From assembly GCA_965208775.1 (NCBI GenBank), contig OZ242360.1:3145591-3209590 (forward strand): a DNA stretch of 64,000 nucleotides, given 5' to 3'. Position 1 is the stretch's first letter; each line of letters starts with the position of its first letter. This DNA comes from Chloroflexota bacterium. Its GTDB lineage: Bacteria; Chloroflexota; UBA11872; VXNJ01. A program made the position numbers and the translations under genes. The notes beneath the pieces were generated by a model, which was given only the letters and a program-made list of their open reading frames with translations, had not been told where the DNA came from and did no database searches. This document shows, in pieces, positions 23,338-48,060 of the stretch.

Positions 23338-25629
23338 TTAGGCGACACTCCGCCTTAACACGTTCAGGGCGGATCCGGCCCAAATCCACTCTATCTGCTG
23401 CTCGTTCAGCGTGTGCGCCAGCTCGATGGCGTGAGTTGAGCCGTTGGCGTGTCGAAGCACCGCGGTTACGGGTTCCCCCGGGGCCAGCTCGTGGATGTCG
23501 ACGAGGTCGATTCGGTCGGTTTTTTCGATCTTGTCGTAGTCGTCGGGATTGACGAACGTAAACGGGAGCAAGCCCTGTTTCTTGAGGTTCGATTCGTGGA
23601 TTCGCGCGAAGCTCCGCACGATGATCACGGAGCCGCCCAGGTGTCTGGGTGACATGGCCGCGTGCTCGCGGCTGCTGCCCTCGCCGTAGTTTTCATCACC
23701 GACGGCTACCCAGCGCAGCCCGTGCTTGTGGTAGGACTTGGCTATCTCGGGAATCGGCTCTTCGTCGGCCCCGGAAATCTGGTTGTAACCTGTCCCCGGT
23801 GTTGCCGAGAACGAATTGTTAGCGCCGGTGAACATGTTATCGCTGAGATTGGTCAGGTGCCCGCGGAACCGCAGCCACGGTCCCGCTGGGGATATGGCGT
23901 CCGTGGTGCACTGTCCGGCGGCCTTCAGCAGCACGGGCATGTCTTGAAAATGCTCCGGGGATTGCTCGGGAAACGGGTGGAGGATCTCCAGCCGCTTGCT
24001 CTCCGGATCGACCTTGATTTCGACCGACGACGCGTCGCCACTGGGAGGTTCGTATCCGTAGCCTTTACCGGTAAAGCCGTCGGCCGGGACTTCAGGCGCG
24101 GGAGCGGGAGGATCGAGCCGGAACCCGTCGGAGCCAGCGGATTCGATACGGTCGACTAGCGGGTTGAACGAAAGTCGCCCGGCCAACCCGTAAGCGACGG
24201 CGATCTCCGGGCTTACAAGAAACGAATGCGTGCTCGCGTTCCCGTCGTTGCGGCGGGGGAAGTTGCGGTTGAAGGACGAGATTATCGAATTGACCTTCAC
24301 GGGCCGACTCCCGTCCGGGCCGGCTTCCCGCCTGCGCCACTGCCCGATGCAGGGTCCGCAAGCGTTCGCGAGGACCGTCGCTCCAATCGATTCGAGGACA
24401 CCGAGTTGACCATCGCGCTCTATGGTCGCACGCACCGTTTCGGAGCCGGGCGTGACGAGCAGCGGAGTAACAGCCCGCGCGCCGCGCGCCGCGGCCTGAG
24501 CGGCGACATCGGCGGCACGTGAAACGTCTTCGTATGACGAGTTGGTGCAGCTTCCGATGAGCGCCGCGGAGAGCTCGTTCGGATAGCCATGAGCTTCGAC
24601 CTCCGCCGCCATCTCGGATACCGGCCGTGCCAGATCTGGCCGGTGCGGACCGACGACGTGCGGCTCAAGCTCGCTGAGATCGATTTCTATGACCTCTTGA
24701 TAGAACCGTGTTGGGGTCTCATTGACCTCCTCGTCCACGGTGAGCAGGTCGAGGGCCTGGCCGGCCAAGTCCGCCAGTTCACCGCGACCGGTGGCCCGCA
24801 GATAGGTTGCCATTCGTCCGTCGAAAGGAAATACGGAGCTTGTAGCGCCAAGCTCCGCGCCCATGTTGGTTATCGTCGCCTTGCCGGTGCAGGAGAGTGA
24901 TCGAGTTCCCGGACCGAAGTATTCGATAATCCGGTTCGTCCCGCCACTGGTCGTCAAAATCCCGAGTAGCTTTAGGATCACGTCCTTAGGCGCGGTCCAG
25001 CCGCTCAGCTCACCCGTGAGTCGTACGCCCACAACGTGCGGGTTCTTCACTTCCCACGGGAATCCGACCATCGCGTCGACTGCGTCGGCTCCACCGACGC
25101 CCACGGCCAGCATTCCGAGGCCGCCGGCGTTGGGCGTGTGCGAGTCGGTCCCGATCATCAGACCGCCGGGAAACGCGTAGTTCTCGAGTACCACCTGGTG
25201 GATTATTCCGGCACCCGGTCTCCAGAATCCGAGTCCGTACTTGCGGGAGACAGAGGCGAGGAACTGGAATACTTCGGCGTTCTCGGTGCGAGCGACGTGC
25301 AGGTCGGATGCGGACCCGTTGTGCGCGCGGATGAGGTGGTCGCAGTGAACGGTCGTCGGCACGGCCGCCTCGTCGCGGGCGGCCAGCATGAACTGGAGCA
25401 GCGCCATCTGTCCGGTCACGTCCTGGAGCGCAACCCGGTCCGGCCGAAGCTGCAAGTAACTGTCGCCGGGCGTCAGGTCGTCTCCGGATGGATCGTCCAG
25501 ATGGCCGAAGACGATTTTCTCGGCCAGAGTCAGCGGGCGTCCCAGGCGGGTCCGCACGATCTCCAACGTCTCACGCATCCGCGCGTAGATTCCCGCCACT
25601 AACTCGGGCGTCGACTCGATGGTTGGCAT
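23338..25629 (-). CDS. acnA: Aconitate hydratase (mitochondrial-like type)
   Basis: LRPDRVALQD, HCDHLI, GTDSHT, IGSCTNSSY, ACGPCIG, GSSREHAA; ATG at 25629 with SD. Confidence 0.95.
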   Translation of the reverse strand: MPTIESTPELVAGIYARMRETLEIVRTRLGRPLTLAEKIVFGHLDDPSGDDLTPGDSYLQLRPDRVALQDVTGQMALLQFMLAARDEAAVPTTVHCDHLIRAHNGSASDLHVARTENAEVFQFLASVSRKYGLGFWRPGAGIIHQVVLENYAFPGGLMIGTDSHTPNAGGLGMLAVGVGGADAVDAMVGFPWEVKNPHVVGVRLTGELSGWTAPKDVILKLLGILTTSGGTNRIIEYFGPGTRSLSCTGKATITNMGAELGATSSVFPFDGRMATYLRATGRGELADLAGQALDLLTVDEEVNETPTRFYQEVIEIDLSELEPHVVGPHRPDLARPVSEMAAEVEAHGYPNELSAALIGSCTNSSYEDVSRAADVAAQAAARGARAVTPLLVTPGSETVRATIERDGQLGVLESIGATVLANACGPCIGQWRRREAGPDGSRPVKVNSIISSFNRNFPRRNDGNASTHSFLVSPEIAVAYGLAGRLSFNPLVDRIESAGSDGFRLDPPAPAPEVPADGFTGKGYGYEPPSGDASSVEIKVDPESKRLEILHPFPEQSPEHFQDMPVLLKAAGQCTTDAISPAGPWLRFRGHLTNLSDNMFTGANNSFSATPGTGYNQISGADEEPIPEIAKSYHKHGLRWVAVGDENYGEGSSREHAAMSPRHLGGSVIIVRSFARIHESNLKKQGLLPFTFVNPDDYDKIEKTDRIDLVDIHELAPGEPVTAVLRHANGSTHAIELAHTLNEQQIEWIWAGSALNVLRRSVA

Positions 25630-25889
25630 TGCCCCTACCTCATTAAGCAAACGTGCGCTGTTTACAGAGTAAGCGTTTCGATTGGCGCACGGCCGCGCCA
25701 GTCTCCCAGTCTATCGCCTGCACGATATGACCTCAGGACCCAATGGACGTACCTTCTGCTATTCACAGTTCACCCAGTGCGAGTAATTTGACGCGGTCTC
25801 CCGCGAGCACAAACACCGCATGGATAGCGCGGGTATCATTTAGCCCGGCATCGTCCTAACTCACTATTTAACGGAACTTAACGGAACAA

Positions 25890-26975
25890 ATGACATATAG
25901 CGTCACACTAATTCCCGGCGATGGAACAGGCCCGGAAATCGCCGAGGCTATGCGCCGAGTCCTCGACGCGACCGGCGTCGAATTCGATTGGCAAATCCAG
26001 AACGCCGGAGCCGAAGTTGCGGAGAAGACCGGAGAGCCGCTGCCGGAGTCGGTACTAAATTCGATTCGAGAGAACAAACTTGCCATCAAGGGACCACTCA
26101 CAACTCCCGTGGGAACGGGCTTTCGCAGCGTGACCGTAGCCATGCGCAAAGAGCTGGACCTCTACGCATGCCTGCGTCCCTGCAAGATGTACAAGGGAGT
26201 TCGCTCGTTCTACGACGAGATCGATCTCGTGATCGTTCGAGAGAACACAGAAGACCTCTATGCGGGAATCGAGTTCGAGAGAGGATCCCAGGCCGCGTCG
26301 GACTTAATCCGACATCTGAGCAGCCTGAACGGATCGGCCATTCCGTCGGACTCGGGCATCAGCATAAAACCGATATCGGTAGAGGCTACGGACCGCATCG
26401 TCCGTTTCGCCTTCGACTACGCAATCGCGAACGGTCGCAAAAAGGTAACGGCCGTCCACAAAGCCAACATCATGAAGTTCTCGGACGGGCTGTTTCTCGA
26501 AGTTGCCCGCGACGTTGCGCGGGACTATCCCGAAGTCGAGTTCGAGGACCGGATCGTGGACAACATGTGCATGCAGCTGGTCCAAAAGCCGGAACTCTAC
26601 GACGTGATGGTCTTACCGAACCTGTACGGCGACATCGTTTCGGATCTGTGCGCCGGGTTGATTGGAGGACTCGGCGTCGCCCCGGGAGCGAATATCGGAG
26701 ACGACTTCGCGGTATTCGAGGCCACGCACGGGAGCGCGCCCCGCTATACCGGTATGAACAAAGTCAACCCGCTCGCCATGATCCTGTCGGGTCTAATGAT
26801 GCTGCGCCACATTGGCGAAACCGCCGCCGCCGACATGCTCGACAGCGCCATCGCGCGACTGATCGAAGCCGGCGATTCCGTGACGTACGATATGAAACCC
26901 CACCGCGACGACCCGACCGCGGTCGGTACGTCCGACGTTGCGGACGCGCTTATAAGGCTCATGCACGACGCTTGA
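25890..26975 (+). CDS. icd: Isocitrate dehydrogenase (isocitrate/isopropylmalate DH family)
   Basis: [47 protein letters not shown]; TCA context. Confidence 0.92.
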
Positions 26976-28105
26976 AGCTCCACGAATACCAGGCGAGAGC
27001 GCTGTTTGCCGAGGCCGGCATCCCTGTACCCGCGAGCAACGTAGCCTTCTCGGCCAGTGAGGCGAGAGAGATTGCGGAGCAGCTAGGCAAGCCGGTCGTC
27101 GTCAAAGCGCAGGTCCTGGTCGGCGGACGGGGCAAGGCGGGCGGAGTGAAACTGGCCCAGACTCCCGCCGCCGCGCAGGAAGCGGCGGATAAGATTCTCG
27201 GACTGACAATCGGTGGCTATCCGGTGGAGCAAGTGCTCGTCGCCGAAGCGTCGGATATAGAACGGGAGATTTATCTCGGCGCGATCGTCGACCGTGATGC
27301 GAAACGCATACTGCTCATGGTCAGCGGCGAGGGCGGAGTCGAGATCGAAGAGGTGGCGCGAACCAATCCGTCCGCCATTCACAGGGAGTACGTTCAACCG
27401 TCCGGCGTGCTGGAAGCTCAGCAGGGACGCCGCCTGGGGTTCATGCTTGGCCTCGACTGGAAGCAGGTCCGCAAGTTCGAGTCGATAGCCCGCTCGCTGG
27501 TGGAGCTTGCGGTGCGGATCGATGCCTCACTGGCGGAAATCAATCCATTGATCGTCACTCCGGAAGGCGACCTCCGGGCCATCGACGCCAAGGTGAATAT
27601 CGACGACAACGCGCTCTTCCGACGGCCGGAATTAGCCGGGCTTCGAAATCCCGAAGAGGAGACGGGGCCTGAGCGTCGGGCGCGAGAATCGGGCATCAGC
27701 TACGTCAAGCTCGACGGCAATATCGGCTGCATGGTCAATGGGGCGGGGCTGGCGATGGCGCTGCTCGACGTAATAAAGCTCCAGGGAGGCGAGCCTGCTA
27801 ACTTCCTGGACGTCGGAGGCGGAGCCGACGCCGCGCAAGTACGTACGGCGATGGAGATCATCCTCGCCGACCCGGCGGTGAAGCTGGTACTGGTGAACAT
27901 CTTCGGCGGGATTACCCGATGCGACGAAGTCGCGCGGGGCGTCGTCGCGGCGACTACCGGTCTGGACCGCGACGTTCCGCTGGTTGTCAGGTTGGTCGGA
28001 ACCAATGAAGAAGAGGGACTGGAAGTCCTCCGCGACGCTGGAATATCAGCGTATACCGGCATGGTCGACGCCGTGAACGAAGCGGTTAGTCGAGCGGCCG
28101 CTTGA
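26972..28105 (+). CDS. sucC: Succinyl-CoA synthetase beta subunit
   Basis: TTG start overlapping the icd stop: (M)[33 protein letters not shown]. Confidence 0.96.
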
Positions 28106-28974
28106 GCATCCTCGTCGACGCCGACACGCGAGTGCTCGTGCAGGGTATTACGGGCAATCAGGGTTCGTTTCATGCGCGGCTCATGCTCGACTACGGCTCC
28201 AACGTCGTGGCGGGTGTGGTGCCAGGACGGGGCGGGCAGTCAGTCCATGACGTGCCGGTGTTCGATACGGTCGAGGAAGCCGTCGACCGCACCCAGCCGA
28301 ACTGCGGAATAATCTTCGTACCCGCGTTCGCCGCGCCTGACGCGATTCTGGAACAGGCCGCCGCCAACATTCCCCTGATCGTCTGCATCACCGAGGGCAT
28401 TCCAGTGATCGACATGATTCCCGTCTGTCACCGGGTGAAGGCGGCGGGATCGCGTTTGATCGGACCGAACTGCCCGGGCGTGATATCGCCCGCGCACAAG
28501 GTCAAAGTCGGAATACTGCCCGGACAGATTCACATGCCCGGGCCGGTGGGGGTTGTCAGCCGCAGCGGAACGCTGACATACGAAGTAGTCCAGTCGCTTT
28601 CAGCTTCAGGCCTGGGACAGAGCACGTGCGTGGGGATAGGAGGCGACCCGATTATCGGCACGTCTTTTATCGACGTCGTAGACATGTTCGAGCGTGATCC
28701 GTCAACCGAAGCGATAGTCGTGATCGGTGAAATCGGCGGAACGGATGAAGAGCAGTGCGCCGAGCACATCGCCGCGAACGTGAGCAAACCCGTCCTTGCA
28801 TTCATCGCCGGGCGAACGGCCCCGCCGGAGAAGCGCATGGGGCACGCGGGGGCTATCGTTTCAGGGGGATCGGGAACGGCGACGGAAAAAATAGAGGCGT
28901 TCGAGCGCGCGGGCGTGCGCGTTGCGGCTATACCGGACGAAATCGCAGCCGCCGTTCGGTCTACGATTCCTTGA
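28102..28974 (+). CDS. sucD: Succinyl-CoA synthetase alpha subunit
   Basis: [20 protein letters not shown], phospho-His motif MGHAGA. Confidence 0.97.
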
Positions 28975-29108: not shown

Positions 29109-30794
29109 ATGCTCGAATTTGACGTGGTTGTTATCGGCGGCGGTGTTGCGGGTATGCGCGCGGCTCTGGCCGCTTCGGCATCCGCCGGGGTCGCGTTGAT
29201 ATCGAAGGATCATCCTGTCCGATCAGGTTCGACATCTTCGGGAGGCGGGATCAACGCGCCGCTCGATCCTTCGGACGATCTGGAAACTTATGCAACCGAC
29301 ACCGTTCGGGCGGGAGACTTTCTGTCGGAGAGGGATGCGGTCGAGACGCTTTGCGCGGATGCTGCGAGCGCCGTTATCGAGATGGAAAACAGCGGCGTCG
29401 CGTTCGACCGCGATCCGACCGGCCGCCTTGCGCTTCACAGGCTTGGCGGCACGAGCCGGTCCCGCGCGGCCCATGGCGCCGACTGGACAGGTGTTCTCCT
29501 GGCACAGACTCTCTGGGCAGAGCTTGTCAAAGCGGGCGTCACCGTTCTGGACGAATGGTATGTAACACGCTTGGTCGTGCGCGACGAGGAAGTACTGGGA
29601 GTGGTCGCAACGGACTTGCGGTCGGGCGAGCTGCACGCAGTCGGGGCCCGGGCGGTCATACTGGCGACGGGCGGTGCGGCGGGTGTTTACGAGATCAACA
29701 CAAGTCCAGTTTCCAACACCGCCGACGGCCTTGCGCTTGCATATCGCGAGGGACTTCCCTTGCGCGACATGGAGTTCGTTCAATTCAACCCTACGGGCCT
29801 TTACGCCGCCGGGAACGCGCTAGCCCGCGGGATATCGATAACCGAGGCGGCGCGGTCGCACGGATCGCTACTGCGCAATTCAGAGGGCGAGCGTTTCATG
29901 GAGCGCTACGCTTCCGAAAGCCTGGAGCTCGCGCCCCGCGACATCGTCTCCCGCGCGGTGCAGACCGAGATCGACGCAGGCCGCGGCGTAAACGGCGGGT
30001 GCGTGAGTCTCGACGCGAGCGGCAACGGGGATATGGCCTCCTCGCTGCCGAATTTCCAGCACCTCTGCGGGGACCTGCTTAATCTCGATCCGAGCGAGAA
30101 TCCTGTTCCCGTCGTTCCTTCCGCGCACTCCAGCGCGGGTGGAATACCCACCGACCTTGACGGCTCCACTGCGGTTGCCGGGCTTTATGCGGTGGGCGAA
30201 TGTGCAAGCACAGGAGTCCATGGAGCCGGTCCGCTGGCTGGAAACGGACTGGCCGAGGCGCTTGTCTTTGGCCGACTGGCCGGCAACGCAGCCGCCAACC
30301 GGGCATCGGAAGGAGTTCTCCACTTCGCTGACTTGAGCGCCGCGCGTGACGACGAGGCTGATCGAGTCGGTCGGTTGATGGCGCATCCCGGCGCGGAGAG
30401 GGTGTCGGCGCTGACGGGCGAAATGCGTTCGGTCATGTCATCTCACGTCGGAGTCTTCCGCGACGGCGAAGGGCTGGCGAGCGCTCGATTCGCTCTCGAC
30501 TCCATCTCCGAACGGCTCGCCGACATCGGCGTAAGCAGCAAGTCCAAGCGGTTCAACCTCGAAGTTAGGGCGGCGCTCGAGCTGCTCAACATGGTGGAGG
30601 TTGCTGGAGTCGTGATCGATAGCGCTGGCAACCGCACGGAGTCGCGCGGCAGTCACTTCAGGCGAGACCACGCGGAACGAGATGACGAGAACTGGCGACT
30701 CCACACACTCGCCTACAAAAACTGCGATGGGGCTCGAATCGAAACCGAAGAGCTGACAGCAAAGACCGACGATCCCGACGCGAGGGCTTATTAA
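29109..30794 (+). CDS. SdhA/FrdA/NadB-family flavoprotein with substituted active site
   Basis: GGGVAG, LATGG, MEFVQF, LAPRDIVSR and RTESRGSHFR are present, but RSG replaces RSH, QFNPT replaces QFHPT and HGAGPL replaces HGANRL. Confidence 0.85.
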   Translation: MLEFDVVVIGGGVAGMRAALAASASAGVALISKDHPVRSGSTSSGGGINAPLDPSDDLETYATDTVRAGDFLSERDAVETLCADAASAVIEMENSGVAFDRDPTGRLALHRLGGTSRSRAAHGADWTGVLLAQTLWAELVKAGVTVLDEWYVTRLVVRDEEVLGVVATDLRSGELHAVGARAVILATGGAAGVYEINTSPVSNTADGLALAYREGLPLRDMEFVQFNPTGLYAAGNALARGISITEAARSHGSLLRNSEGERFMERYASESLELAPRDIVSRAVQTEIDAGRGVNGGCVSLDASGNGDMASSLPNFQHLCGDLLNLDPSENPVPVVPSAHSSAGGIPTDLDGSTAVAGLYAVGECASTGVHGAGPLAGNGLAEALVFGRLAGNAAANRASEGVLHFADLSAARDDEADRVGRLMAHPGAERVSALTGEMRSVMSSHVGVFRDGEGLASARFALDSISERLADIGVSSKSKRFNLEVRAALELLNMVEVAGVVIDSAGNRTESRGSHFRRDHAERDDENWRLHTLAYKNCDGARIETEELTAKTDDPDARAY

Positions 30795-31552
30795 TGGCGG
30801 AACAACGACTCGGACTGCAGATAAGCAGGTACGATCCCGAAACGCACGACCGGCCTGAAGCGCGCAACTATGAGGTGGCGGTTGGGGAGTCGATGACCGT
30901 TCTCGACGCGTTGGTGTCGATACATGAAGAACAGGACTCGTCCCTGGCGATTCGTTACTCGTGCCGGGGCGGTGTCTGCGGAGCCTGCGGCGTACAGGTC
31001 AACGGCCTGCCCGTGCTGGCGTGTCGAACGCGCGTATCGTCCCTCGATTGCAACGGGTCCCCCGTCGAGATAGCCCCCTTGCAAAACCATCCGGTTATTC
31101 GGGACCTCGTCGCCGACTTCGATCCCACCTTCCTGACGCTCGGGGCGGGGGAGCCGTGGATTCAACCCGATGCAGGATCGCCCGGGAGCGGCATGGACTC
31201 GGACATGACGCAGGAGGAGGTTGACCGTCTGGGACGGTCCCAGGCGTGCATTTCCTGCGGTCTTTGCGACGCGGCCGTCACCGGCGCAAATGCGTCCGCG
31301 GGCTTCATCGGCCCGGCTGCGCTCGTTCGGGAGTTCCGGTTGGCGGCCGACGTGCGCGACGGGTCGGACCGGGACCGCCTCGAAAAGATCAACGACAGCG
31401 GCGGAATTTGGGACTGCGATCCCGACAAGTCGTGGGACGACGCTTGCCCCGTGGGAATAGACCCGGCAAACAAGATCGAACTGCTTCGAGAGGCTTCGAT
31501 TGCAAACAAGATCGCCGGTCGCAAACGAGTGGAGTCCGAAGCGGCCGCATAG
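30794..31552 (+). CDS. SdhB/FrdB-like Fe-S subunit lacking two [3Fe-4S] ligands
   Basis: SCRGGVCGAC...LAC (2Fe-2S), IRDLVAD, CISCGLCDAAV, CDPDKSWDDACP. Confidence 0.85.
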   Translation: MAEQRLGLQISRYDPETHDRPEARNYEVAVGESMTVLDALVSIHEEQDSSLAIRYSCRGGVCGACGVQVNGLPVLACRTRVSSLDCNGSPVEIAPLQNHPVIRDLVADFDPTFLTLGAGEPWIQPDAGSPGSGMDSDMTQEEVDRLGRSQACISCGLCDAAVTGANASAGFIGPAALVREFRLAADVRDGSDRDRLEKINDSGGIWDCDPDKSWDDACPVGIDPANKIELLREASIANKIAGRKRVESEAAA

Positions 31553-31618: not shown

Positions 31619-32548
31619 TTGGCACGCACCAAGGTAACTATTGCGGGCGCTGGGCAGACGGGAGGATCTATCGCCCGTCGGGTAGCCGAGAGAGGTTATG
31701 CCGACGTCGTGATGATCGACGTAGTCGAGGGATTTGCCGCTGGCAAGGCGCTCGACCTCAATCAGACCGGCCCGCTGATGGGGTATCCACCGAACCTGAT
31801 CGGATCCACGGGCTATGACGAGTCCGAGAACTCCGACATTTGCGTAATCACGTCGGGGTTTCCGCGTCAGCCCGGAATGTCGCGGGACGACCTCCTGCTG
31901 AAGAATAAAGAGATCGTCGAGGACGTAGCAGGCCGGCTTGCCGAGAAGTCTCCCGACTGCAAGTTCATCGTACTGACCAATCCGGTCGACGCCATGGCCC
32001 AGCTCGTCCACTCCGTAACGTCGTTTTCCAAGGAGCGCGTGATAGGACAGGGCGGCATTCTGGATTCGGCGCGGTATCGAACGTTCATCGCCTGGGAACT
32101 GGGCGTATCGCCTGAAGACGTGTCGGGATTCGTTCTCGGAGGGCATGGGGACGCGATGGTGCCGGTGCCTCGTTACACGTCCGTGGCGGGTGTCCCCGTC
32201 GGCGAGCTGCTGCCCCAGGACCGCCTCGACGCGATTATCCAGAGGACGCGGGACGGGGGAGCCGAGATCGTAAAGCTCCTGCAGCGCGGCAGCGCCTACG
32301 AAGCTCCGGGCGAGGCCGTGATGCTGATGATCGATTCGATTGTCCTGGACCAGAAGCGGCTGTTCCCATGCTCGGTCCTGCTCGAAGGCGAATATGGGAT
32401 AAACGGCACGTTTGTGGGTGTGCTGGTGAAGCTGGGGGCGCAAGGTTACGAGGGGATGATCGACGTTTCCTTGACCGAGGAAGAGCTGGCTGCTTTACAT
32501 AAATCTGCGGACGGTGTGCGGGAGCTCGTGGAGATAATGGGCGTCTGA
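31619..32548 (+). CDS. mdh: Malate dehydrogenase (LDH-like)
   Basis: GAGQTG, PRQPGMSRDDL (MDH Arg), LDSAR, GGHGD, GSAY. Confidence 0.95.
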   Translation: MARTKVTIAGAGQTGGSIARRVAERGYADVVMIDVVEGFAAGKALDLNQTGPLMGYPPNLIGSTGYDESENSDICVITSGFPRQPGMSRDDLLLKNKEIVEDVAGRLAEKSPDCKFIVLTNPVDAMAQLVHSVTSFSKERVIGQGGILDSARYRTFIAWELGVSPEDVSGFVLGGHGDAMVPVPRYTSVAGVPVGELLPQDRLDAIIQRTRDGGAEIVKLLQRGSAYEAPGEAVMLMIDSIVLDQKRLFPCSVLLEGEYGINGTFVGVLVKLGAQGYEGMIDVSLTEEELAALHKSADGVRELVEIMGV

Positions 32549-32640
32549 CCGCGACTCCCGGCAGATAGAATCGAACGGCCCCCTGATAACCGGTCGCGGC
32601 CCGGTTGATTATGATCCCGCGAAGCAAAGGATATGAATTG

Positions 32641-34053
32641 ATGGCAACACGGACTGAGCGCGATCCGCTCGGCGAAGTCGAGGTCCCGTCCGAAGCCTTA
32701 TACGGCGTTCAGACTCAGCGTGCGGTCGATAATTTCCCAATCAGCGCAATCGGTCCGCATCCGGCGTTCGTCTGGGCGACGGTGCTCATCAAGAAGGCCG
32801 CGGCCGTTACGCATCGTGAGACGGGACGCCTAGATCCGACGCTTGCCGACGCGATCATCCGGGCCGCGGATGAGGTGCTCGACGGGCTGCACGGCGATCA
32901 GTTCGTGGTCGACGTGTTCCAGGCCGGGGCGGGCACGTCGCACAACATGAACGCGAACGAATTGCTGGCCAATCGCGCGAACGAGCTGTTGGGCGGATCG
33001 CGCGGCGACTACGATCCCGTGCATCCCAACGACCATGTAAACATGGCGCAGTCGACCAACGACATCATCCCGACCGCCATCGCACTCGCCGCGCTGCGTC
33101 TCTTGCAGCCGCTCTACGAGGCGCTTGACGGACTTGCCGACTCGCTGGAGCAGAAGTCGGAGGAATGGGACGGCATCGTCAAGTCTGGCCGGACGCACGT
33201 GCAGGACGCCACCCCGGTCCGGCTGGGACAGGAGTTCGGGGCCTACGCAGTCGCCGTGCGCCGGGGTCGTGAGCGAATCGCCGCAGCGGAAGTAGATGTC
33301 CAGGAGCTGAGCATCGGAGGGACTGCCGTGGGAAGCGGTCTCAACGCGGAGCCTCGGTATCAGGAGCGGGTTGTCGAGGTGCTGGGCGAGCTGAGCGGTC
33401 TGACCGTGCGGCGTTCCGAAAACCTGTTCTACTCGATGCAGAGCATGTCGCGGTTCGCGATGCTGTCGGCGGCGCTCAAGGCGCTTGCGGTCGACCTGGG
33501 CAAGCTGGCCAACGATATCCGCCTACTGGGATCGGGACCTCGCACGGGGATTTCCGAGATCAGGATGCCGGCGGTCCAGCCGGGTTCGTCGATCATGCCG
33601 GGCAAGGTCAACCCGGTGATGGCCGAGTGCCTGAACATGATCTGCTTTCAGGTTTTCGGAAACGACCTCGCTGTCACGATGGCGGCAGAGGCCGGGCAGC
33701 TTCAGTTGAACGTGATGATGCCGGTCATAGCCCACAACCTCTCGCAATCGATCGACATCCTGGCGAATGGCTGCAAGCAGTTCCACGAGCTAGGCGTCCG
33801 CGGTCTGGAGCCGGACGGAACGATGATCCGCCACTGGCTGGAGCGCAACACCATGCTGGCGACGGCCCTGGCGCCAAGAATCGGTTACGCGGCGGCGGCG
33901 GAAATCGCCAAAGAAGCCGTCCGCACGGGCGAGAGCATCCCCGACGTAGCCAAACGGATGACCGACCTCCCCGAAGACGAGCTGGCGAGTGCGCTCGACC
34001 CCGCGCCCATGACTGAACCGGGCGTTCGCGCGGGTGGTGGAGGCGGCGGTTAA
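32641..34053 (+). CDS. Class II fumarase/aspartate ammonia-lyase family
   Basis: YGVQTQRA, HPNDHVN, STND, GRTH, signature GSSIMPGKVNP; context suggests fumarase. Confidence 0.9.
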   Translation: MATRTERDPLGEVEVPSEALYGVQTQRAVDNFPISAIGPHPAFVWATVLIKKAAAVTHRETGRLDPTLADAIIRAADEVLDGLHGDQFVVDVFQAGAGTSHNMNANELLANRANELLGGSRGDYDPVHPNDHVNMAQSTNDIIPTAIALAALRLLQPLYEALDGLADSLEQKSEEWDGIVKSGRTHVQDATPVRLGQEFGAYAVAVRRGRERIAAAEVDVQELSIGGTAVGSGLNAEPRYQERVVEVLGELSGLTVRRSENLFYSMQSMSRFAMLSAALKALAVDLGKLANDIRLLGSGPRTGISEIRMPAVQPGSSIMPGKVNPVMAECLNMICFQVFGNDLAVTMAAEAGQLQLNVMMPVIAHNLSQSIDILANGCKQFHELGVRGLEPDGTMIRHWLERNTMLATALAPRIGYAAAAEIAKEAVRTGESIPDVAKRMTDLPEDELASALDPAPMTEPGVRAGGGGGG

Positions 34054-34101: not shown

Positions 34102-35586
34102 CTACCAGGGCCAGACCTGAGGCTCGCCCGGGTCCATATCGAGCGTCCAGGCCTCAAACGACCTGCTGATTAGCTCGTTGCGAATCGGGTCCCGACCGGG
34201 CTCAAGCCAAAGATCGTCGAATTCGTGCGGGTCGTTTTGGAGATCGAAGAGCTCGCCCAAACCGGCGCCGTGATAACAGACAAGCTTCCAGCGCTCGTCG
34301 CGGTACATCGTGGCGTAGGCGGGTCGTCCGTCCGCGGAATGGTAGAAGTACTCGCACCGCACGAAGTCCTTGTGGTGATCGGGGGGCGCGCTGCCCGTGA
34401 GAATGGGCAACAGCGACCGTCCCTGAACGTGGGCGGGAACGGGCAGACCGCTGATCTCCAGAAGAGTCGGGACGATATCGACAAGCTCGACCAAGGCGTT
34501 GCTCTGCAGCCCCGCCGTCGCTCCCGCGGGCCAGGACCACAGCAGGGGCACTCGCACAAGTCCTTCGTAAAACCGCGCTCCCTTCATCACCAGCCCATGG
34601 TCGCCCAGCGCCTCACCATGATCGCTTGTGAAGATGATTACGGTGTTTTCGCGCAGACCGGCCGATTCGAGCCAGTCCAACAGCCGTCCTATTTCACAGT
34701 CGATCAGCTCGATCATCGCGTAGTAAGCGGCTTTTAGCTGGCGGGCTCTGATCACGTCGAGCGGGTACGGTCCCACGGCAAATGGGACTTGCGCTAAACG
34801 CTCCTGCCGGTGGAGATCGCTTTCGCGAAAGGGGGGATCGCTCAACGTCTCCGGCGGATAACGCTTGTAGTAGTCCCAGGGAGGATCCGAGGGAGGATGC
34901 GGGTCGAACGCATTGACGCTGAGGAACCAGGGGCGCTCGCGGGGCTGGGATATGAACTCGATAGCCTTGTCGGTACACCACCTGGTCTGGTGCAGCTCCG
35001 GCGGCGCATTATCCGAACCGGGCGTGGGTACCTTTAGTCCAGCCCATCCGTTGTCAGGAGTTACCACCCTCAAACCGGGCGAGTCGTATGTGTCGATTGC
35101 GTCAACGGGATCGTGGCCCTGAAGCCGTACCCATTCGAGGTATGAGTCGCCTTCGGGCCAGTATCGATACGGCATGTGGCTGTATTGGAAATAGTCGAAG
35201 CCGTCGTCGCGGCGGTTCTCGGGTCCGTTGTGCGCGCCTGCCAGGTGCAGCTTGCCGATCAGACCGCAGTCGTAACCGGCGTCGGACATGATACGGCTTA
35301 TGAGTTTGTCGACAAGGCTCGCGGGGTAGGTCTCGCACCCGTTGCGAATGACGTGATTGGCGCTCGGGTACATTCCGGTCAAGAAGCTGGCACGGCTCGG
35401 CGTGCATACGGGGTTCTGGCAATAGGCATGGGTGAAAGCCGCGCCCTCGGCCGCCAGCCTGTCGAGATGGGGCGTGCGAATCTCGGAATTTCCGAGAGCG
35501 GCTATTGTGTCAAAACGCTGCTGATCGGTGCAATACAGCAGTATGTTCGGACGCTCGTTAGAGCCGCCTTGGCCGGAGCCCGCCAC
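34102..35586 (-). CDS. Cys-type sulfatase, no signal peptide seen
   Basis: PNILLYCTDQQR, CTPSRAS, GKLH, PHPP, SDHG. Confidence 0.93.
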   Translation of the reverse strand: MAGSGQGGSNERPNILLYCTDQQRFDTIAALGNSEIRTPHLDRLAAEGAAFTHAYCQNPVCTPSRASFLTGMYPSANHVIRNGCETYPASLVDKLISRIMSDAGYDCGLIGKLHLAGAHNGPENRRDDGFDYFQYSHMPYRYWPEGDSYLEWVRLQGHDPVDAIDTYDSPGLRVVTPDNGWAGLKVPTPGSDNAPPELHQTRWCTDKAIEFISQPRERPWFLSVNAFDPHPPSDPPWDYYKRYPPETLSDPPFRESDLHRQERLAQVPFAVGPYPLDVIRARQLKAAYYAMIELIDCEIGRLLDWLESAGLRENTVIIFTSDHGEALGDHGLVMKGARFYEGLVRVPLLWSWPAGATAGLQSNALVELVDIVPTLLEISGLPVPAHVQGRSLLPILTGSAPPDHHKDFVRCEYFYHSADGRPAYATMYRDERWKLVCYHGAGLGELFDLQNDPHEFDDLWLEPGRDPIRNELISRSFEAWTLDMDPGEPQVWPW

Positions 35587-39515: not shown

Positions 39516-40469
39516 CTACCAGTCAGCCGAAACAAGCAATGAATCGACGTAAAGGAAATTGCGCACCGGCACGCGCGTGCGAACGTTGATTTCGAGATTC
39601 AACAGCCGGGCCAGCCCCCAATACGGGGAATCGTGCACCGGAACCGGGATGTCGCGTAGGTCCATGACCTTGTCGTTGACTTGAAGCTCGACATTGCGAC
39701 CCCTGCCGATGTCAAACACCCACCGCAGGTAGTGCCAGTTCACTTTGGACGGAATCTCGTTGTAGCAGAGCGGCTGATATCCATCGGGAACGTCCTCCCA
39801 GTCCGCCGGGTCCTGCACCTGGAAGTCCTCGAGCGGACGGTCGAGATAGTCGTCGGGAAACATGTCTCTGATCGTCCTGCGCGTTACCTGCAGCGACGTC
39901 TTGTATTTCCAACGCCGAATCAAGTTGCCCTGAGCATCGGCGTTGACGTAGCGAAGCGCGCAGTGAGTTCGCCGTCCCTCGTCGTCGATTTGAATGTCGT
40001 TACCGATCATGATGTCGCCGAACTGCGCTTCCGAGGGATGGAAGTTTCCATCCCATTCCCGTCCGCCTTCGGGCACCGGCTCGAAGTTCCATTCGGACTT
40101 GTAGCTGAAGTACATCTCCATTTGCACCGGCCCAAGGTCTTGCCACGTGAGTCGCTTGCACATTACCGCCATATGGTCGGGAACGGGCCGGGTAGCAGCC
40201 TTGAGGGCGTATGTACCCGACATCGGCCCGTGCGTGCCCTGGTCGAAGTACGTGCACGTGCTCAACTGGGCGGGATGAAAGTCACGGACGTAGCGGGCCA
40301 TGTTGTCGAGATTTCCGTCTGTGTTGCCGATCAGCTCGCACCAGCCGTTGACGCCGTTGTCGAAGTCGTCGAAGCACAGGATTCGCGGGAGGGGATTGAA
40401 CTTGCTCAGCTTCGGATCGGCCCGAAGCAACGCCAGCCTGAGGGCGTCTGCATCGATCACTCGGCGCAC
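39516..40469 (-). CDS. DUF6772-like protein of unknown function
   Basis: DPKLSKFNPLPRILCFDDFDNG, GTHG...GTYALK, KVNWHYLR; family recognised from memory. Confidence 0.65.
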   Translation of the reverse strand: MRRVIDADALRLALLRADPKLSKFNPLPRILCFDDFDNGVNGWCELIGNTDGNLDNMARYVRDFHPAQLSTCTYFDQGTHGPMSGTYALKAATRPVPDHMAVMCKRLTWQDLGPVQMEMYFSYKSEWNFEPVPEGGREWDGNFHPSEAQFGDIMIGNDIQIDDEGRRTHCALRYVNADAQGNLIRRWKYKTSLQVTRRTIRDMFPDDYLDRPLEDFQVQDPADWEDVPDGYQPLCYNEIPSKVNWHYLRWVFDIGRGRNVELQVNDKVMDLRDIPVPVHDSPYWGLARLLNLEINVRTRVPVRNFLYVDSLLVSADW

Positions 40470-41609: not shown

Positions 41610-43141
41610 GTGACGAGTAGCGCCCGGCCTAACATCTTGTGGTACTGCACCGATCAGCAGCGCTTCGACACGGTCGGCGCGCTCGGCAATCGCCACGTGC
41701 ATACACCCAATCTCGACCGCCTGGTGGAGGGGGCGTTGCCTTCACCCACGCGTATTGTCAGAGTCCTATCTGCACACCCAGCCGCGCCAGTTTCCTAACC
41801 GGTATGTACCCGAGCACGCTCCACGTCCACAGCAACGGGTCGCTGTACTTCCCCAGCGAACACACAATGGTGACCCGAATGCTTGCCGACTCGGGCTACG
41901 ACTGCGGCCTGGTTGGAAAGCTTGGGCTGGCAAACGGCGAGGGAGCCGAAGAGCCGCGCAACCAAAGTGGCTATCGATACTACGAATACTCGAACGGTCC
42001 GAAGGTGGGGCTGTCCAATGGCAACGACTATCTGAGGTGGATTCGTGATAGAGGGCTGGACCCTGTCTCTATCCTCGGTCCGCCATCCGACATCGGGCGG
42101 TGCGACCGCGCCGCCTTCGCGGGCTTCACGTCGAGCTTGCACCGCGGCGGGCTGAAGTTACCGACGCCCGACAAAGACAACGCGCCCGTCGCCCTTCACC
42201 AGACGACCTGGTGCACGGAAAAGGCCGTCGAGTTCATCTCGGAATCGCGGCGCTCCGACCAACCATGGCTGCTGTCGGTAAACCCGTTCGATCCTCACCC
42301 TCCGTTCGATCCGCCGTGGGAGCACTTCCGCCGGTTCGACCCGGAGACGATGCCCGGACCGCATTTCAGGGAGAGCGACCGGGGCCAGCAAGAACGCTTG
42401 AAGAACATCGACTTTCAGACCAAAGCCCGCAACCCGGAGGAATTTGACGCTCGCTCGGTACAGGCCGCTTACTACGCGATGATCGAGCCAATCGACGATC
42501 GGCTTGGCGCCATTCTCGACGCCTTGGACGAGACCGGACAGCGCGAACGCACCGTCGTGGTGTTCACAACCGATCATGGCGAGGCCCTGGGAGATCACGG
42601 ACTGTTGCTGAAGGGTTGCCGATTCTACGAAGGGCTTGTGCGGGTGCCGCTGATATGGTCGTGGCCGGGGCACTTCAGCACGGGATTGCGCAGCGATGCG
42701 CTGGTCGAGCTGCTGGACATCGCTCCCACGCTGCTGGATCTGGCCGGACTCCCGATTCCGGAACGAATGCAAGGACGGAGCCTTCTGCCGATTCTTGCCG
42801 GCAGAGCCGATCCCGATGAGCACCGGGATTTCGTCCGAAGCGAGTACTACGACGCGCTGCCGCTTCCCGATGGAACCATGGCGACCGTGTACCGCGACCG
42901 GCGTTGGAAGCTGGTCGTGTATCACAGCCACGGATTCGGGGAGCTGTTCGATCTGCGAAACGATCCGCACGAGTTCGAGAATCTGTGGGACGATTCGGCG
43001 TGCCAGGCGGTGCGGGAGGACCTCTTACTCAAGTCCTACGACGCCTCGGTGATGGCCATGGACTGGGGGCCGCCGCTGGTTCAGAAGTATGAGGACCGGC
43101 CAGCCTTTCGGCGGCCGCTGGGCAGGTGGGGCCGGAGATAG
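41610..43141 (+). pseudogene. Sulfatase with a 1-nt frameshift (pseudogene, phase-variable gene or sequencing error)
   Basis: From GTG 41610 the frame reads [13 protein letters not shown]...LDRLVEG; it continues in another frame as [18 protein letters not shown]. The shift lies in the G5 run at 41729-41733. Confidence 0.85.
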
Positions 43142-46902: not shown

Positions 46903-48060
46903 TCATCTGAGCCATGGGCCGTAGCGACCTGTTCTGGAGTGGGCGAGGATGCCTTCGTCGAGAAGCGGCTCAACGAATTCCGGGGAGTAGCGGGTAGCCC
47001 GGTAGACGTTGACGAACTGATCGCCGAAAAACGGTGAGTAGTAGTCCCAGACCACGTCGCCCTCCATCGTGACTTCGAAGATGCGACCGCAGTCCGCTTC
47101 GCAAATGAGCGTGTTGCCGTTGGGCAGGCGCTGCTGACCCGCCCTGAACGGGCTGAAGAAGCCTTTGGGATCGCTGTATTCCCAAAGGAAGACCTCCGGC
47201 TCGCGAGGATCGAATTCGATGACCCTCGAATATCCTCGTAAAGTCCCGTTATCGAAGAGCAGGATATTGCCGTTGGGGAGCATCTGAGGCTGATGCTGAC
47301 CGTCGAGCACGCCGAGTCCCCACGCCCAGATGATCTCGCGGGTGTCGCTATCGACGATTGAGATGATGTCGATCGATCGGTGGCTGAGCATGTAGTTTCC
47401 CGCCCGGAATCGTCTGTCGGCGCGTCCGACCGGCGTGTCTGGTAACACGGTGAGCGTGTTGGTGTGCGACCAGTCGGCGGCGGGTCTCGGCAGCTCCAGA
47501 CCGGCAAGATCAACCAGCTCGTCGACGTGGTCGCTGAGCCACCATTCCCAATGGACGAACGTCTTGCGGTCGACTTTCAATATCAGGTCGTCCTGGATGG
47601 GACCTCGGGGGAAAATGTCGGGACGGTCGCGGTCGCGTTGGTACAGGGTGAGGAGCGTACCGTCGTCGAAGCGGTGAAAGTCGTGATGAACCCGCCCGTA
47701 CCACGCCCAGGTGACGTTTCCCTCGAAGTCCGTCTCGAACAGGCCGCTGAAGCACCGATCGCGGTCTTGGTTCCAATCCATGAAGTTGTCCCAGAAGATG
47801 GTGCCGTCGCTGTCGAGCTCCGCCCACTGGCTCCTGACGACGGGCCAGGTGTGAACGACCCGGCCGTTCATGTCGATGAGGTATTCGGTGTAGCCGAATG
47901 CCGGCGAGAAAAGCGTATAGCCGGGCCAAGCCCGGTCGCGGTCCCAAACGCGGACCCCGCGGAGCCCGTTGTCGACGCGCGGAGGGAGCGGCGTCGGCAG
48001 CTCGCCGTAATCTCGCGGGGCGTTCTCTCCGACTTCCGACTTTGACTGCTCTGCCCCCAT
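46903..48060 (-). CDS. Arylsulfate sulfotransferase (ASST)-like beta-propeller
   Basis: GYTLF, LIDMNG, HHDF, WSHTN, QH, FDNG, QRLPNGNTLI. Confidence 0.8.
   Translation of the reverse strand: MGAEQSKSEVGENAPRDYGELPTPLPPRVDNGLRGVRVWDRDRAWPGYTLFSPAFGYTEYLIDMNGRVVHTWPVVRSQWAELDSDGTIFWDNFMDWNQDRDRCFSGLFETDFEGNVTWAWYGRVHHDFHRFDDGTLLTLYQRDRDRPDIFPRGPIQDDLILKVDRKTFVHWEWWLSDHVDELVDLAGLELPRPAADWSHTNTLTVLPDTPVGRADRRFRAGNYMLSHRSIDIISIVDSDTREIIWAWGLGVLDGQHQPQMLPNGNILLFDNGTLRGYSRVIEFDPREPEVFLWEYSDPKGFFSPFRAGQQRLPNGNTLICEADCGRIFEVTMEGDVVWDYYSPFFGDQFVNVYRATRYSPEFVEPLLDEGILAHSRTGRYGPWLR

Follow-up and report, generated by a model that had tools for sequence, protein, structure and literature searches.

The 64,000-nt stretch of DNA analysed here, hereafter the window (Chloroflexota bacterium GCA_965208775.1, contig OZ242360.1, positions 3,145,591-3,209,590, forward strand), carries within a TCA-cycle operon a flavoprotein gene (A') and an iron-sulfur protein gene (B') whose products are almost certainly not the succinate:quinone oxidoreductase of the cell. 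A'B' may instead have stayed redox-active as a soluble flavo-iron-sulfur oxidoreductase of low potential that acts on a substrate other than succinate/fumarate, or on one held differently, a reading to which we give a probability of roughly 45 %. Complex II ranks among the most thoroughly studied enzymes of respiration, with active-site residues regarded as invariant; the pair described here is a natural SdhAB that no longer has the covalent flavin, two of the substrate ligands, the distal cluster or the anchor (five losses in all), yet it is still under selection in a TCA operon and coexists with a normal FrdABCD in one genome. Two observations are new: orthologues of the pair occupy the same slot in sister genera, where they are far more decayed and still under purifying selection, and NadB is missing, despite the presence of NadA and NadC, from just two genera of the family, those with the mildly altered pair (g1 and g3).

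The gene order acn/icd-sucC-sucD-A'-B'-mdh-fumC is identical in 4/4 related loci (Table 1). A gap of 134 bases separates sucD from A', the TAA stop of A' and the ATG start of B' have one base in common (TAATG), indicating translational coupling, and mdh starts 66 bases downstream of B', with no anchor genes after B'. A scan of the operon returned one promoter-like site (2.0 expected) and five terminator-like sites (6.4 expected), which are uninformative at these numbers. The last gene falls below the cut-offs of both TIGR00979 (fumC) and TIGR00839 (aspA); the genome has no other FumaraseC_C match, and no class I fumarase was found.

Table 1. Genes of the TCA operon and its divergent neighbour (window coordinates)
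Feature	Coordinates	Strand	Details
Aconitase	23338..25650	-	TIGR01340 1011.6 bits (cut-off 825); divergent from operon; same position in 4/4 related loci
Isocitrate/isopropylmalate dehydrogenase family	25890..26975	+	PF00180 1.4e-104; first gene of operon; same position in 4/4 related loci
sucC, succinyl-CoA ligase beta subunit	26972..28105	+	NF001913 482.5 bits (cut-off 370); Pfam
sucD, succinyl-CoA ligase alpha subunit	28102..28974	+	NF004230 420.4 bits (cut-off 336)
A', SdhA/FrdA-like flavoprotein	29109..30794	+	561 aa, ATG start; PF00890 8.6e-88, PF02910 5.6e-35
B', SdhB-like iron-sulfur protein	30794..31552	+	252 aa; Fer2_3/Fer2 Pfam matches
mdh, malate dehydrogenase	31619..32548	+	TIGR01763 387.2 bits (cut-off 351.85)
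Class II fumarase/aspartase family	32605..34053	+	PF00206, PF10415; NF008909 610 bits (cut-off 510)

A' coincides with a single listed ORF whose translation is free of stops, so the full-length intact frame reported in the preliminary description holds over all 561 aa. The Pfam matches cover positions 1-414 of 414 (PF00890) and 3-130 of 130 (PF02910), indicating a full-length FAD_binding_2 plus Succ_DH_flav_C fold. The translation reads RSGSTSSGGGI at residues 38-48, QFNPTG at 225-230 and HGAGPLAGNGL at 371-381, and a HMMER alignment with E. coli SdhA (1nek_A) pairs these with the canonical segments (rsGstssGggi/rsHtvsaQggi, qfNptg/qfHptg and hgaGPlagn/hgaNRlggn). Gly40 therefore stands in place of the covalent-FAD His, Asn227 in place of the first substrate His and Gly374-Pro375 in place of the Asn-Arg of HGANRL. 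Codon 40 was read directly from the bases (GGT at 29226-29228), while codons 227 (AAC at 29787) and 375 (CCG at 30231) were placed by frame arithmetic and are consistent with the translation. Without a His at position 40, covalent attachment of FAD to A' is impossible. The protein retains LAPRD (274-278), ITEAAR (244-249) and AHSSAGG (339-345), whose proton-donor Arg, Thr-Glu pair and second His, respectively, line up with the canonical residues, and it carries a six-residue insert after PTGL. Translation, HMMER alignment and a 25-row alignment thus agree with the earlier description of the loss of the covalent-FAD His and two substrate-binding residues, and alignment likewise bears out its statement that the LAPRD Arg, the TE pair, the AHSSAGG His and the FAD motifs are intact.

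According to the accessible text of PMC5773532, fumarate is oriented by FrdA H232, H355, R390, T244 and R287. Judged by alignment, A' lacks two of these five side chains: in the dicarboxylate-orienting triad (H232, H355, R390) only the H355 equivalent (His340) is left, the other two positions being Asn227 and Pro375. The capping-domain Thr and Glu and the proton-shuttle Arg (FrdA T244, Glu245 and R287) are retained, ITEAAR and LAPRD being present in 12/12 rows of the clade described below. An AF2 model of A' (pLDDT 86.6, pTM 0.91) found its best PDB match by Foldseek in E. coli FrdA (5vpn_A, TM 0.93, 36 % identity), with low confidence at the three changed loops (41-50, 231-250 and 371-380).

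The substitutions G/N/(G/S)(P/S) occur throughout a small Chloroflexota clade (12/12 members, 57-92 % identity). In the 25-row alignment, the covalent-FAD site is Gly or Ala in 12/12 clade rows and His in the 13 others, and the combination of His, His and Asn-Arg at the three sites occurs in 13/13 non-clade rows vs 0/12 clade rows, a split not due to chance. All three sites fall within 98 columns that are invariant or nearly so across 27 canonical rows. The dN/dS values (NG86; indicative at most where dS exceeds about 1.5 and is saturated) are 0.125-0.184 for A' and 0.115-0.219 for B' (six pairs each), showing that purifying selection acts on A' and B' alike across six species-level genomes. 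Since the homologues share the changes (12/12 members), with open frames and an A' dN/dS well below 1 (<0.2), recent decay or sequencing error in A' can be ruled out.

A' scored below the cut-off of every one of 25 listed NCBIfam models, including the curated SdhA/FrdA, TfrA and NadB models (TIGR01812: 553.2 bits, cut-off 567.3; TIGR00551 for NadB: 365.5 bits, cut-off 452.75). At the NadB-defining positions Glu121, His244 and Arg386, A' has Leu, Asn and Pro/Ser; Glu121 is the base of NadB according to the accessible text of PMC10249383. The cut-offs and the defining residues together rule out A' as NadB or TfrA, and the earlier proposal that A' is neither an ordinary succinate dehydrogenase nor an L-aspartate oxidase is supported by the failure to reach any of these cut-offs. 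That proposal had also held that NadB keeps the QFHPT His and the HGANRL Arg; 4/4 NadB rows from the same family do keep the second His and the Asn-Arg pair.

The degeneracy of the adjoining B' gene goes beyond what the preliminary description had observed. B' scores above the cut-off of TIGR00384 (182.8 vs 88 bits) but below that of NF004616 (197.4 vs 228), and a Pfam search returned Fer2_3/Fer2 alone and no Fer4 family, whereas the canonical FrdB of the genome matches Fer4_8, Fer4_10 and others. It retains every Cys of the first two clusters (four for [2Fe-2S] and four for [4Fe-4S]), but only one of three third-cluster ligands, with Val in place of the fourth Cys of CxxCxxCxxxC and Trp in place of the middle Cys of the second motif. 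All eight Cys of clusters 1 and 2 are present, and the third-cluster ligands lost, in 10/10 B' rows. Going by its ligands, B' is without the cluster from which quinone or a CCG subunit receives electrons. We found no CCG-domain gene near A'B', the CCG domains of the genome lying only in two distant large ORFs. The one-base overlap and the co-inheritance of the two genes suggest that A' and B' bind one another.

A genome-wide search for a canonical succinate dehydrogenase located frdABCD elsewhere: canonical FrdA, FrdB, FrdC (PF02300) and FrdD (PF02313) are encoded together 106 kb upstream of A'B', and FrdC and FrdD were found only at this locus. FrdABCD is likely the complex II of the cell, and its presence rules out A' as the sole succinate dehydrogenase. 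Genome-scale models would count A'B' as succinate dehydrogenase, almost certainly wrongly. The complete FrdABCD also argues against the idea that A'B' is a weak fumarate reductase fed by a soluble low-potential donor, in which Asn227 would replace His as hydrogen-bond donor and His340, Thr245 and Arg277 would hold the substrate. This idea draws on the position of the gene within a TCA operon, with sucCD on one side and mdh on the other, and on the retention of fumarate reduction by complex II variants that have lost the His ligand of the flavin (accessible text of PMC5773532). In addition, PDB entry 1knp is, by its title, a crystal structure of E. coli NadB R386L with bound succinate, so loss of the Arg need not abolish dicarboxylate binding. 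However, the same text of PMC5773532 states that mutation of FrdA H232 abolishes both activities and that R390 stabilises charge at flavin N1/C2, and position 375 is Pro or Ser across the clade, with no conserved compensating basic residue found near it or in the insert (where the insert position is R, C, H or N). We regard a weak fumarate reductase as improbable.

We favour a still redox-active A'B'. Its FAD motifs, Arg, second His and Thr-Glu pair and the eight-Cys FAD-[2Fe-2S]-[4Fe-4S] wire are intact, which is why we read it in this way. The pair would be a heterodimer without an anchor, descended from a type-E-like SdhAB, whose [4Fe-4S] cluster, now terminal, trades electrons with a soluble partner and whose substrate would differ from succinate/fumarate or be bound in a different way. 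The covalent flavin link raises Em by about 100 mV, and removal of the His ligand abolishes succinate oxidation with fumarate reduction staying (both from the accessible text of PMC5773532); with its non-covalent FAD, A'B' would be able to reduce, not oxidise, at the succinate/fumarate potential. Such a non-covalent starting point is plausible, since natural His-less lineages of type-E-like SdhA exist. Several points count against this reading. Pocket positions vary within the A' clade (375 is P/S, 251 is H/E, 40 is G/A and 341 is S/N/F/T), which is unusual for a defined substrate site. The dN of A' exceeds that of canonical FrdA in the same genomes (0.355 vs 0.138 between the present genome and G040), and this faster evolution, the low-confidence loops of the model and the inactivity of the E. 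coli H232 mutant (as given in the accessible text of PMC5773532) weigh in the same direction, as does the selection on orthologues without catalytic residues in genera g2 and g5.

The sucD-A-B-mdh slot of g2 (1/1 genome) and g5 (7/7 genomes) is occupied by orthologues (A''/B'' and A'''/B''') in which neither catalytic residues nor ligands for [2Fe-2S] are left. Missing from them are the Thr-Glu pair, the catalytic Arg, the Cys that bind [2Fe-2S] and some of the FAD-motif residues. Purifying selection persists (dN/dS 0.14-0.20 for A''' and 0.09-0.13 for B''' where dS is <1.2). In genus g4 the pair is absent (0/5 genomes have it), and in locus L091 sucD abuts mdh. A', A'' and A''' group as a single clade in each of two trees (SH-aLRT 99 and 95) and have in common the insert that follows PTGL, the changes F112L, N374G and G377A, and the absence of His40 and Arg375. 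An alternative tree forcing A'' and A''' to NadB was 19.75 lnL worse but was not rejected (p-AU 0.101), and orthology therefore rests also on synteny and the shared indel. The result is a graded series across four genera of one family, from intact redox parts, through loss of the catalytic residues and [2Fe-2S], to deletion of the pair. Such a natural time course of an enzyme turning into something else is rare, and it offers matched proteins for comparison.

Decay under purifying selection in g2 and g5 means that selection in the wider lineage acts on a property for which catalysis is not required, and these orthologues raise the odds of a pseudo-enzyme or partner protein above those drawn from the window alone. 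A'B' could thus be a non-catalytic pseudo-enzyme kept as a structural or regulatory partner, with the FAD site and clusters serving for folding only; it might then be part of a TCA enzyme assembly or work as an Fe-S/flavin sensor, as the least decayed stage of a family-wide decay. We consider this somewhat less probable than a redox-active pair but a serious contender. The dN/dS of the g2/g5 slot orthologues (0.09-0.20) was obtained at unsaturated dS, a single lineage-wide function is the more parsimonious for one clade of A', A'' and A''' with shared changes, and the [4Fe-4S] Cys are the sole cofactor ligands retained in 12/12 B-type rows, alongside the variable pocket residues of A'. A' does combine loss of essential residues with purifying selection, a combination expected of a pseudo-enzyme, but this does not imply a total loss of catalysis. 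Across 57 % identity, A'B' has kept its catalytic residues (Arg, His, Thr and Glu), every FAD motif and the eight Cys of a working wire. Furthermore, A' retains family-critical columns as well as NadB, a real enzyme: 69 of the 98 near-invariant columns are retained in all 12 A' members and 64 in true NadB enzymes of the same family, and the variability of critical columns, taken relative to the rest, stands at 0.38 in A', close to the 0.40 of NadB and between the 0.11 of canonical FrdA and the 0.67 of the dead g5 form. Loss of the pair in g4 indicates that any structural role is dispensable. The two alternatives offered in the preliminary description, an oxidoreductase for another substrate and a pseudo-enzyme or partner subunit, are the two readings that survive.

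NadB scored above the cut-off in 12/13 genomes of g2, g4 and g5 and in 0/6 genomes of g1 and g3; NadA was present in 18/19 genomes and NadC in 19/19. In genome G000 there was no Asp_DH_C match and neither nadB nor a replacement gene was found beside nadC, and tblastn with four NadB proteins of the family matched FrdA and A' only. It is conceivable, if unlikely, that A'B' is an Fe-S-wired L-aspartate dehydrogenase derived from succinate dehydrogenase, which makes iminoaspartate for NadA, passes electrons to a soluble acceptor and has displaced NadB in g1 and g3, the NadB-keeping sister genera having let their copy decay to a non-catalytic protein. This would fit the loss of NadB with NadA and NadC kept, the homology of A' to NadB with non-covalent FAD and the fact that the only NadB-losing lineage is also the only one whose pair retains its redox parts. 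However, g1 and g3 are sister genera (support 100/100), so the absence of NadB counts as one loss event, and with four lineages such a coincidence has a probability of about 1 in 4. The absence of the NadB residues Glu121, His244 and Arg386 from A' also speaks against it, and canonical FrdA could instead cover the missing step, as could non-enzymatic iminoaspartate formation.

A full-text literature search listed no paper on such a pair, and the accessible text of the complex II review PMC10238741 makes no mention of one. E. coli FrdABCD and SdhABCD share with A'B' the fold, the proton-shuttle Arg, Thr, Glu, second His and the [2Fe-2S] and [4Fe-4S] ligands, but A'B' is without the covalent His, the H232/H242 and R390/R399 equivalents, the [3Fe-4S] cluster and the anchor genes. 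NadB is, like A', a soluble SdhA homologue with non-covalent FAD, and Gly369 and Ala377 of A' match NadB; unlike A', it has no Fe-S partner and retains His244, Arg386 and the defining Glu121. The nearest canonical sequences to A' (42-46 % identity) are the type-E ('non-classical') SdhABE(F) and TfrAB. The type-E rows near A' come from Chloroflexota, Dehalococcoidia, ANME-2, Methanosarcinales and Nitrospira, one of them annotated at source as 'Fumarate reductase (CoM/CoB) subunit A'. In the Dehalococcoidia locus L014, SdhA, SdhB and a CCG-domain protein are encoded in a row, with the same flavoprotein plus Fe-S architecture as A'B'. These type-E/TfrAB relatives retain RSH, HPT and GANRL (13/13 rows), the full third-cluster motif and a CCG partner or fusion, none of which is found in A'B'. 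Also comparable is an uncharacterised His-less type-E-like SdhABE that stands beside FrdABCD in Candidatus Binatia and others, with RS/TNS and HGAGRLAGN and thus the same Asn-to-Gly change as A'; a His-less type-E-like SdhA with HGAGRLAGN also occurs in Dehalococcoidia. The Binatia-type SdhA is 40-42 % identical to A' and the coexisting FrdABCD 65 % identical to that of the present genome. In the tree, this SdhA and the A' lineage form an open trichotomy, a sister relation not being recovered. Unlike A'B', the Binatia-type SdhABE has kept both His, both Arg, the three-Cys third-cluster motif and the CCG subunit.

A', the SdhA/FrdA-like flavoprotein of the TCA operon, is a single ORF whose translation contains RSGSTSSGGGI, QFNPTG and HGAGPLAGNGL exactly as the preliminary description had given them, and LAPRD, the TE pair (ITEAAR) and the second His (AHSSAGG), which it had called intact, are all present, as is the full-length frame (561 aa, with full-length PF00890 and PF02910). 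A' can be aligned over its whole length with SdhA/FrdA chains of solved structure, its three changed sites (codon 40; Asn, codon 227; Pro, codon 375, by frame arithmetic and translation) lying opposite the His, His and Asn-Arg of E. coli SdhA (1nek_A), with Gln50 opposite Gly. The best curated family was TIGR01812 (553.2 bits, cut-off 567.3), and A' fell short of the cut-off of every one of the 25 NCBIfam models listed, TfrA and four for NadB among them; these misses support the earlier reading that A' is not an ordinary succinate dehydrogenase or L-aspartate oxidase. The AF2 model has high overall confidence (pLDDT 86.6, pTM 0.91), and its lowest-confidence spots coincide exactly with the loops that hold the three changes (41-50, 231-250 and 371-380); among known structures E. 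coli FrdA comes closest (TM 0.93), and NadB ranks 41st (TM 0.81).

Coordinates of the features discussed (window positions unless a contig or locus is named)
Feature	Location	Strand	Remark
A'	29109..30794	+	SdhA/FrdA-like
A' codon 40	29226-29228	+	GGT
B'	30794..31552	+	SdhB-like partner
Last operon gene	32605-34053		fumarase/aspartase type
Three sulfatase genes and an arylsulfotransferase-like gene	34102-35586, 41639-43141, 59628-61208, 46903-48060		downstream of operon
DUF6772 gene	39516-40469	-	317 aa
nadA	C1:1077713-1078663		window genome (G000)
nadC	C1:611120-611920		window genome (G000)
Canonical complex II, genus g5	L092 6258-9600		
His-less trio and FrdABCD	L129 7001-14143		Candidatus Binatia

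A search of 5.8 billion clustered proteins returned 11 clusters 57-92% identical to A', the next matches being <=46%. In a 25-row alignment, Gly/Ala, Asn and (Gly/Ser)(Pro/Ser) occupy the three sites in 12/12 clade rows, which rules out an allele defect; the same rows share a 6-residue insert after PTGL, and 13/13 non-clade rows have the canonical residues. NG86 dN/dS, which is saturated where dS exceeds about 1.5, was 0.125-0.184 for A', 0.115-0.219 for B', 0.043-0.138 for the operon neighbours and 0.041-0.079 for canonical FrdA of the same genomes; A' is thus under constraint, though its neighbours and canonical paralogue are some two to three times more tightly constrained. Shared substitutions at dN/dS below 1 were what the preliminary description had proposed to look for. 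Between the window genome and genome G040, dN was 0.355 for A' vs 0.138 for FrdA. The operon acn / icd-sucC-sucD-A'-B'-mdh-fumC is identical in four species-level Chloroflexota MAG loci (92, 83, 72 and 57% identity), and the A' type occurs in 6/57 genomes of the order (genus g1, 5/5; genus g3, 1/1), accompanied by a canonical copy in all six. The last operon gene is the only one of its type in the genome; its score clears the cut-off of NF008909, a subfamily model named 'aspartate ammonia-lyase', and stays below those of both the fumC and the aspA equivalogs.

Retention was scored over 98 columns nearly invariant in 27 canonical rows (kept: canonical residue in all group members), and the variability of 114 critical columns, defined on 21 outgroup rows, was taken relative to other columns. 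A' keeps 69/98 (relative variability 0.38), near the true NadB enzymes of the same family (64/98; 0.40); the counterparts A'' of genus g2 (one sequence) and A''' of genus g5 keep 63/98 and 39/98 (A''', 0.67), and canonical FrdA has a relative variability of 0.11. On these values, A' looks like a family member with altered function, not a wreck, although several pocket positions vary inside its clade.

The B' ATG overlaps the A' TAA by one base. Pfam detects only the [2Fe-2S] domain; in alignments, B' has four [2Fe-2S] Cys and four [4Fe-4S] Cys (CxxCxxC plus the final Cys-Pro). Val or Ala replaces the fourth Cys of the first motif and Trp the middle Cys of the second (10/10 clade members), positions that are Cys in all 10 canonical rows. 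Because of these replacements, B' lacks the third cluster, the one from which quinone, haem or a CCG subunit receives electrons; its electron chain ends at [4Fe-4S], which points to a soluble partner and not to quinone. No anchor gene follows B', and mdh begins 66 bases downstream.

According to PMC5773532, the covalent link lifts the FAD potential by ~100 mV (-145 to -55 mV in FrdABCD), and variants without the His ligand keep fumarate reduction and lose succinate oxidation; the residues that orient fumarate are H232, H355 and R390, with T244 and R287, mutants of H232 lose both activities, and R390 serves to stabilise charge at N1/C2 of the flavin. From these roles we infer that A' would be unable to act as a succinate dehydrogenase and would at best be a poor fumarate reductase. 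That A'B' is a residual fumarate reductase would agree with the activity kept by His-ligand-less variants and sits poorly with the changes at the first substrate His and the Asn-Arg pair; we consider it unlikely. The reading that we favour, with a rough probability of 0.45, is of a soluble protein with two clusters, non-covalent FAD and no membrane anchor, which may still be redox-active on some substrate or partner. Such a pair is not described in the literature searched, nor in the portion consulted of a 2023 review.

The canonical complex II for which the preliminary description had suggested a search is present as FrdABCD 106 kb upstream of A', outside the window and directly downstream of alternative-complex-III genes. 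The 3.24-Mb single-contig genome has only two full-length FAD_binding_2 genes, A' and this FrdA (597 aa; RSH, YHPTG, GANRLG), and only two SdhB-like genes; FrdA is followed by FrdB (both Cys motifs full), FrdC (PF02300) and FrdD (PF02313). Genus g5 (locus L092) has a different canonical complex II, comprising a 600-aa SdhA with KAH, a 252-aa SdhB and a 260-aa membrane ORF with no Pfam match, which adjoins the TCA operon on the opposite strand; an FrdABCD-type copy was not seen there.

NadB reached cut-off in 12/13 genomes of g2, g4 and g5, adjoining nadC, and in 0/6 of g1 and g3; NadA was found in 18/19 genomes and NadC in 19/19. In the window genome, family NadB queries match only FrdA and A', no nadB replacement lies beside nadC and no aspartate dehydrogenase domain was found. 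The lineage without NadB is the only one whose pair retains redox parts, as might be expected had A'B' replaced NadB as the source of iminoaspartate in g1 and g3; this is a single event, with coincidence odds of roughly 1 in 4, and A' lacks NadB's Glu121, His244 and Arg386 (alignment; residues from PMC10249383). Replacement thus seems improbable, and is cheap to test.

Between sucD and mdh, g2 (L090) carries a 559-aa A'' and a 237-aa B'', and g5 (L092) a 520-aa A''' and B''' (7/7 genomes), sister-genus forms that we present as new; genus g4 lacks the pair (0/5 genomes), and sucD abuts mdh in L091. One A''' copy (L105, genome G051 of g5) has a TAA inside the match near the N-terminus, with residues 50-519 open, which could reflect truncation or faulty assembly, the MAG being 80% complete. 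A'' and A''' are far more degenerate than A': the covalent-FAD His and proton-shuttle Arg are both gone, the Thr-Glu-Ala-Ala-Arg-Gly-Glu-Gly stretch is past recognition, A'' has Arg instead of the second His, and A''' has T(D/E)G(S/A) in place of ATGG and has lost GDG. The [2Fe-2S] Cys are missing from B'' and B''' (no more than one stays in register), the four [4Fe-4S] Cys being retained in 12/12 B-type rows. His227Asn is confined to A', A'' still having His. The decayed A'''/B''' is under purifying selection (dN/dS 0.14-0.20 and 0.09-0.13; pairs with dS < 1.2). These forms, together with the variable pocket positions, are what would be seen if A'B' were a partner protein without catalysis and represented the least advanced stage of a decay running through the whole family; the NadB-like column retention of A' and the two complete Cys sets of B' point the other way. 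We regard this as the main alternative, only somewhat less probable, and retain the putatively redox-active protein as our preferred reading.

Trees unite A', A'' and A''' in a single clade with long branches (SH-aLRT 99 with 50 rows, 95 with 63 rows). A tree forcing A'' and A''' to NadB was not rejected (p-AU 0.101), so their orthology also rests on synteny and shared characters, namely the operon slot, the insert, F112L, N374G, G377A and the losses of His40 and Arg375. The Acn + SucC + SucD + Mdh tree, (g2, g5, (g4, (g3, g1))), with support of 100/100 for the g1+g3 node and 89/87 for the g4 node, indicates that the family's ancestor already had the pair and that a single loss took place, in g4.

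Downstream of the operon, the sulfatase and arylsulfotransferase-like genes alternate with ABC sugar or peptide transporters, and the DUF6772 gene (full-length match, 2.8e-109) is flanked by a transporter cluster and a 3-hydroxyisobutyrate-dehydrogenase-like gene.

The nearest canonical relatives of A' are type-E / TfrA-like proteins (42-46% identity); at the Dehalococcoidia locus L014, SdhA is encoded together with a CCG protein and an SdhB of 330 aa. With A''' as the query, a search brought up another natural His-less SdhA group (RS/TNS and HGAGRLAGN; about 17 species-level loci in Candidatus Binatia and others, 57-77% identity), which no source names. Locus L129 holds a complete His-less type-E trio, SdhA-SdhB-CCG, directly upstream of a canonical FrdABCD 65% identical to that of the window genome; the pair is followed by FrdAB in four of six such loci examined (L136, L137 and L141 noted beside L129), and the Dehalococcoidia loci L144 and L145 are also His-less. 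The tree gives no resolved sister relation between the His-less groups and the A' lineage. A non-covalent type-E-like SdhA beside FrdABCD is thus a recurring arrangement, of which A'B' would be a further stripped version.
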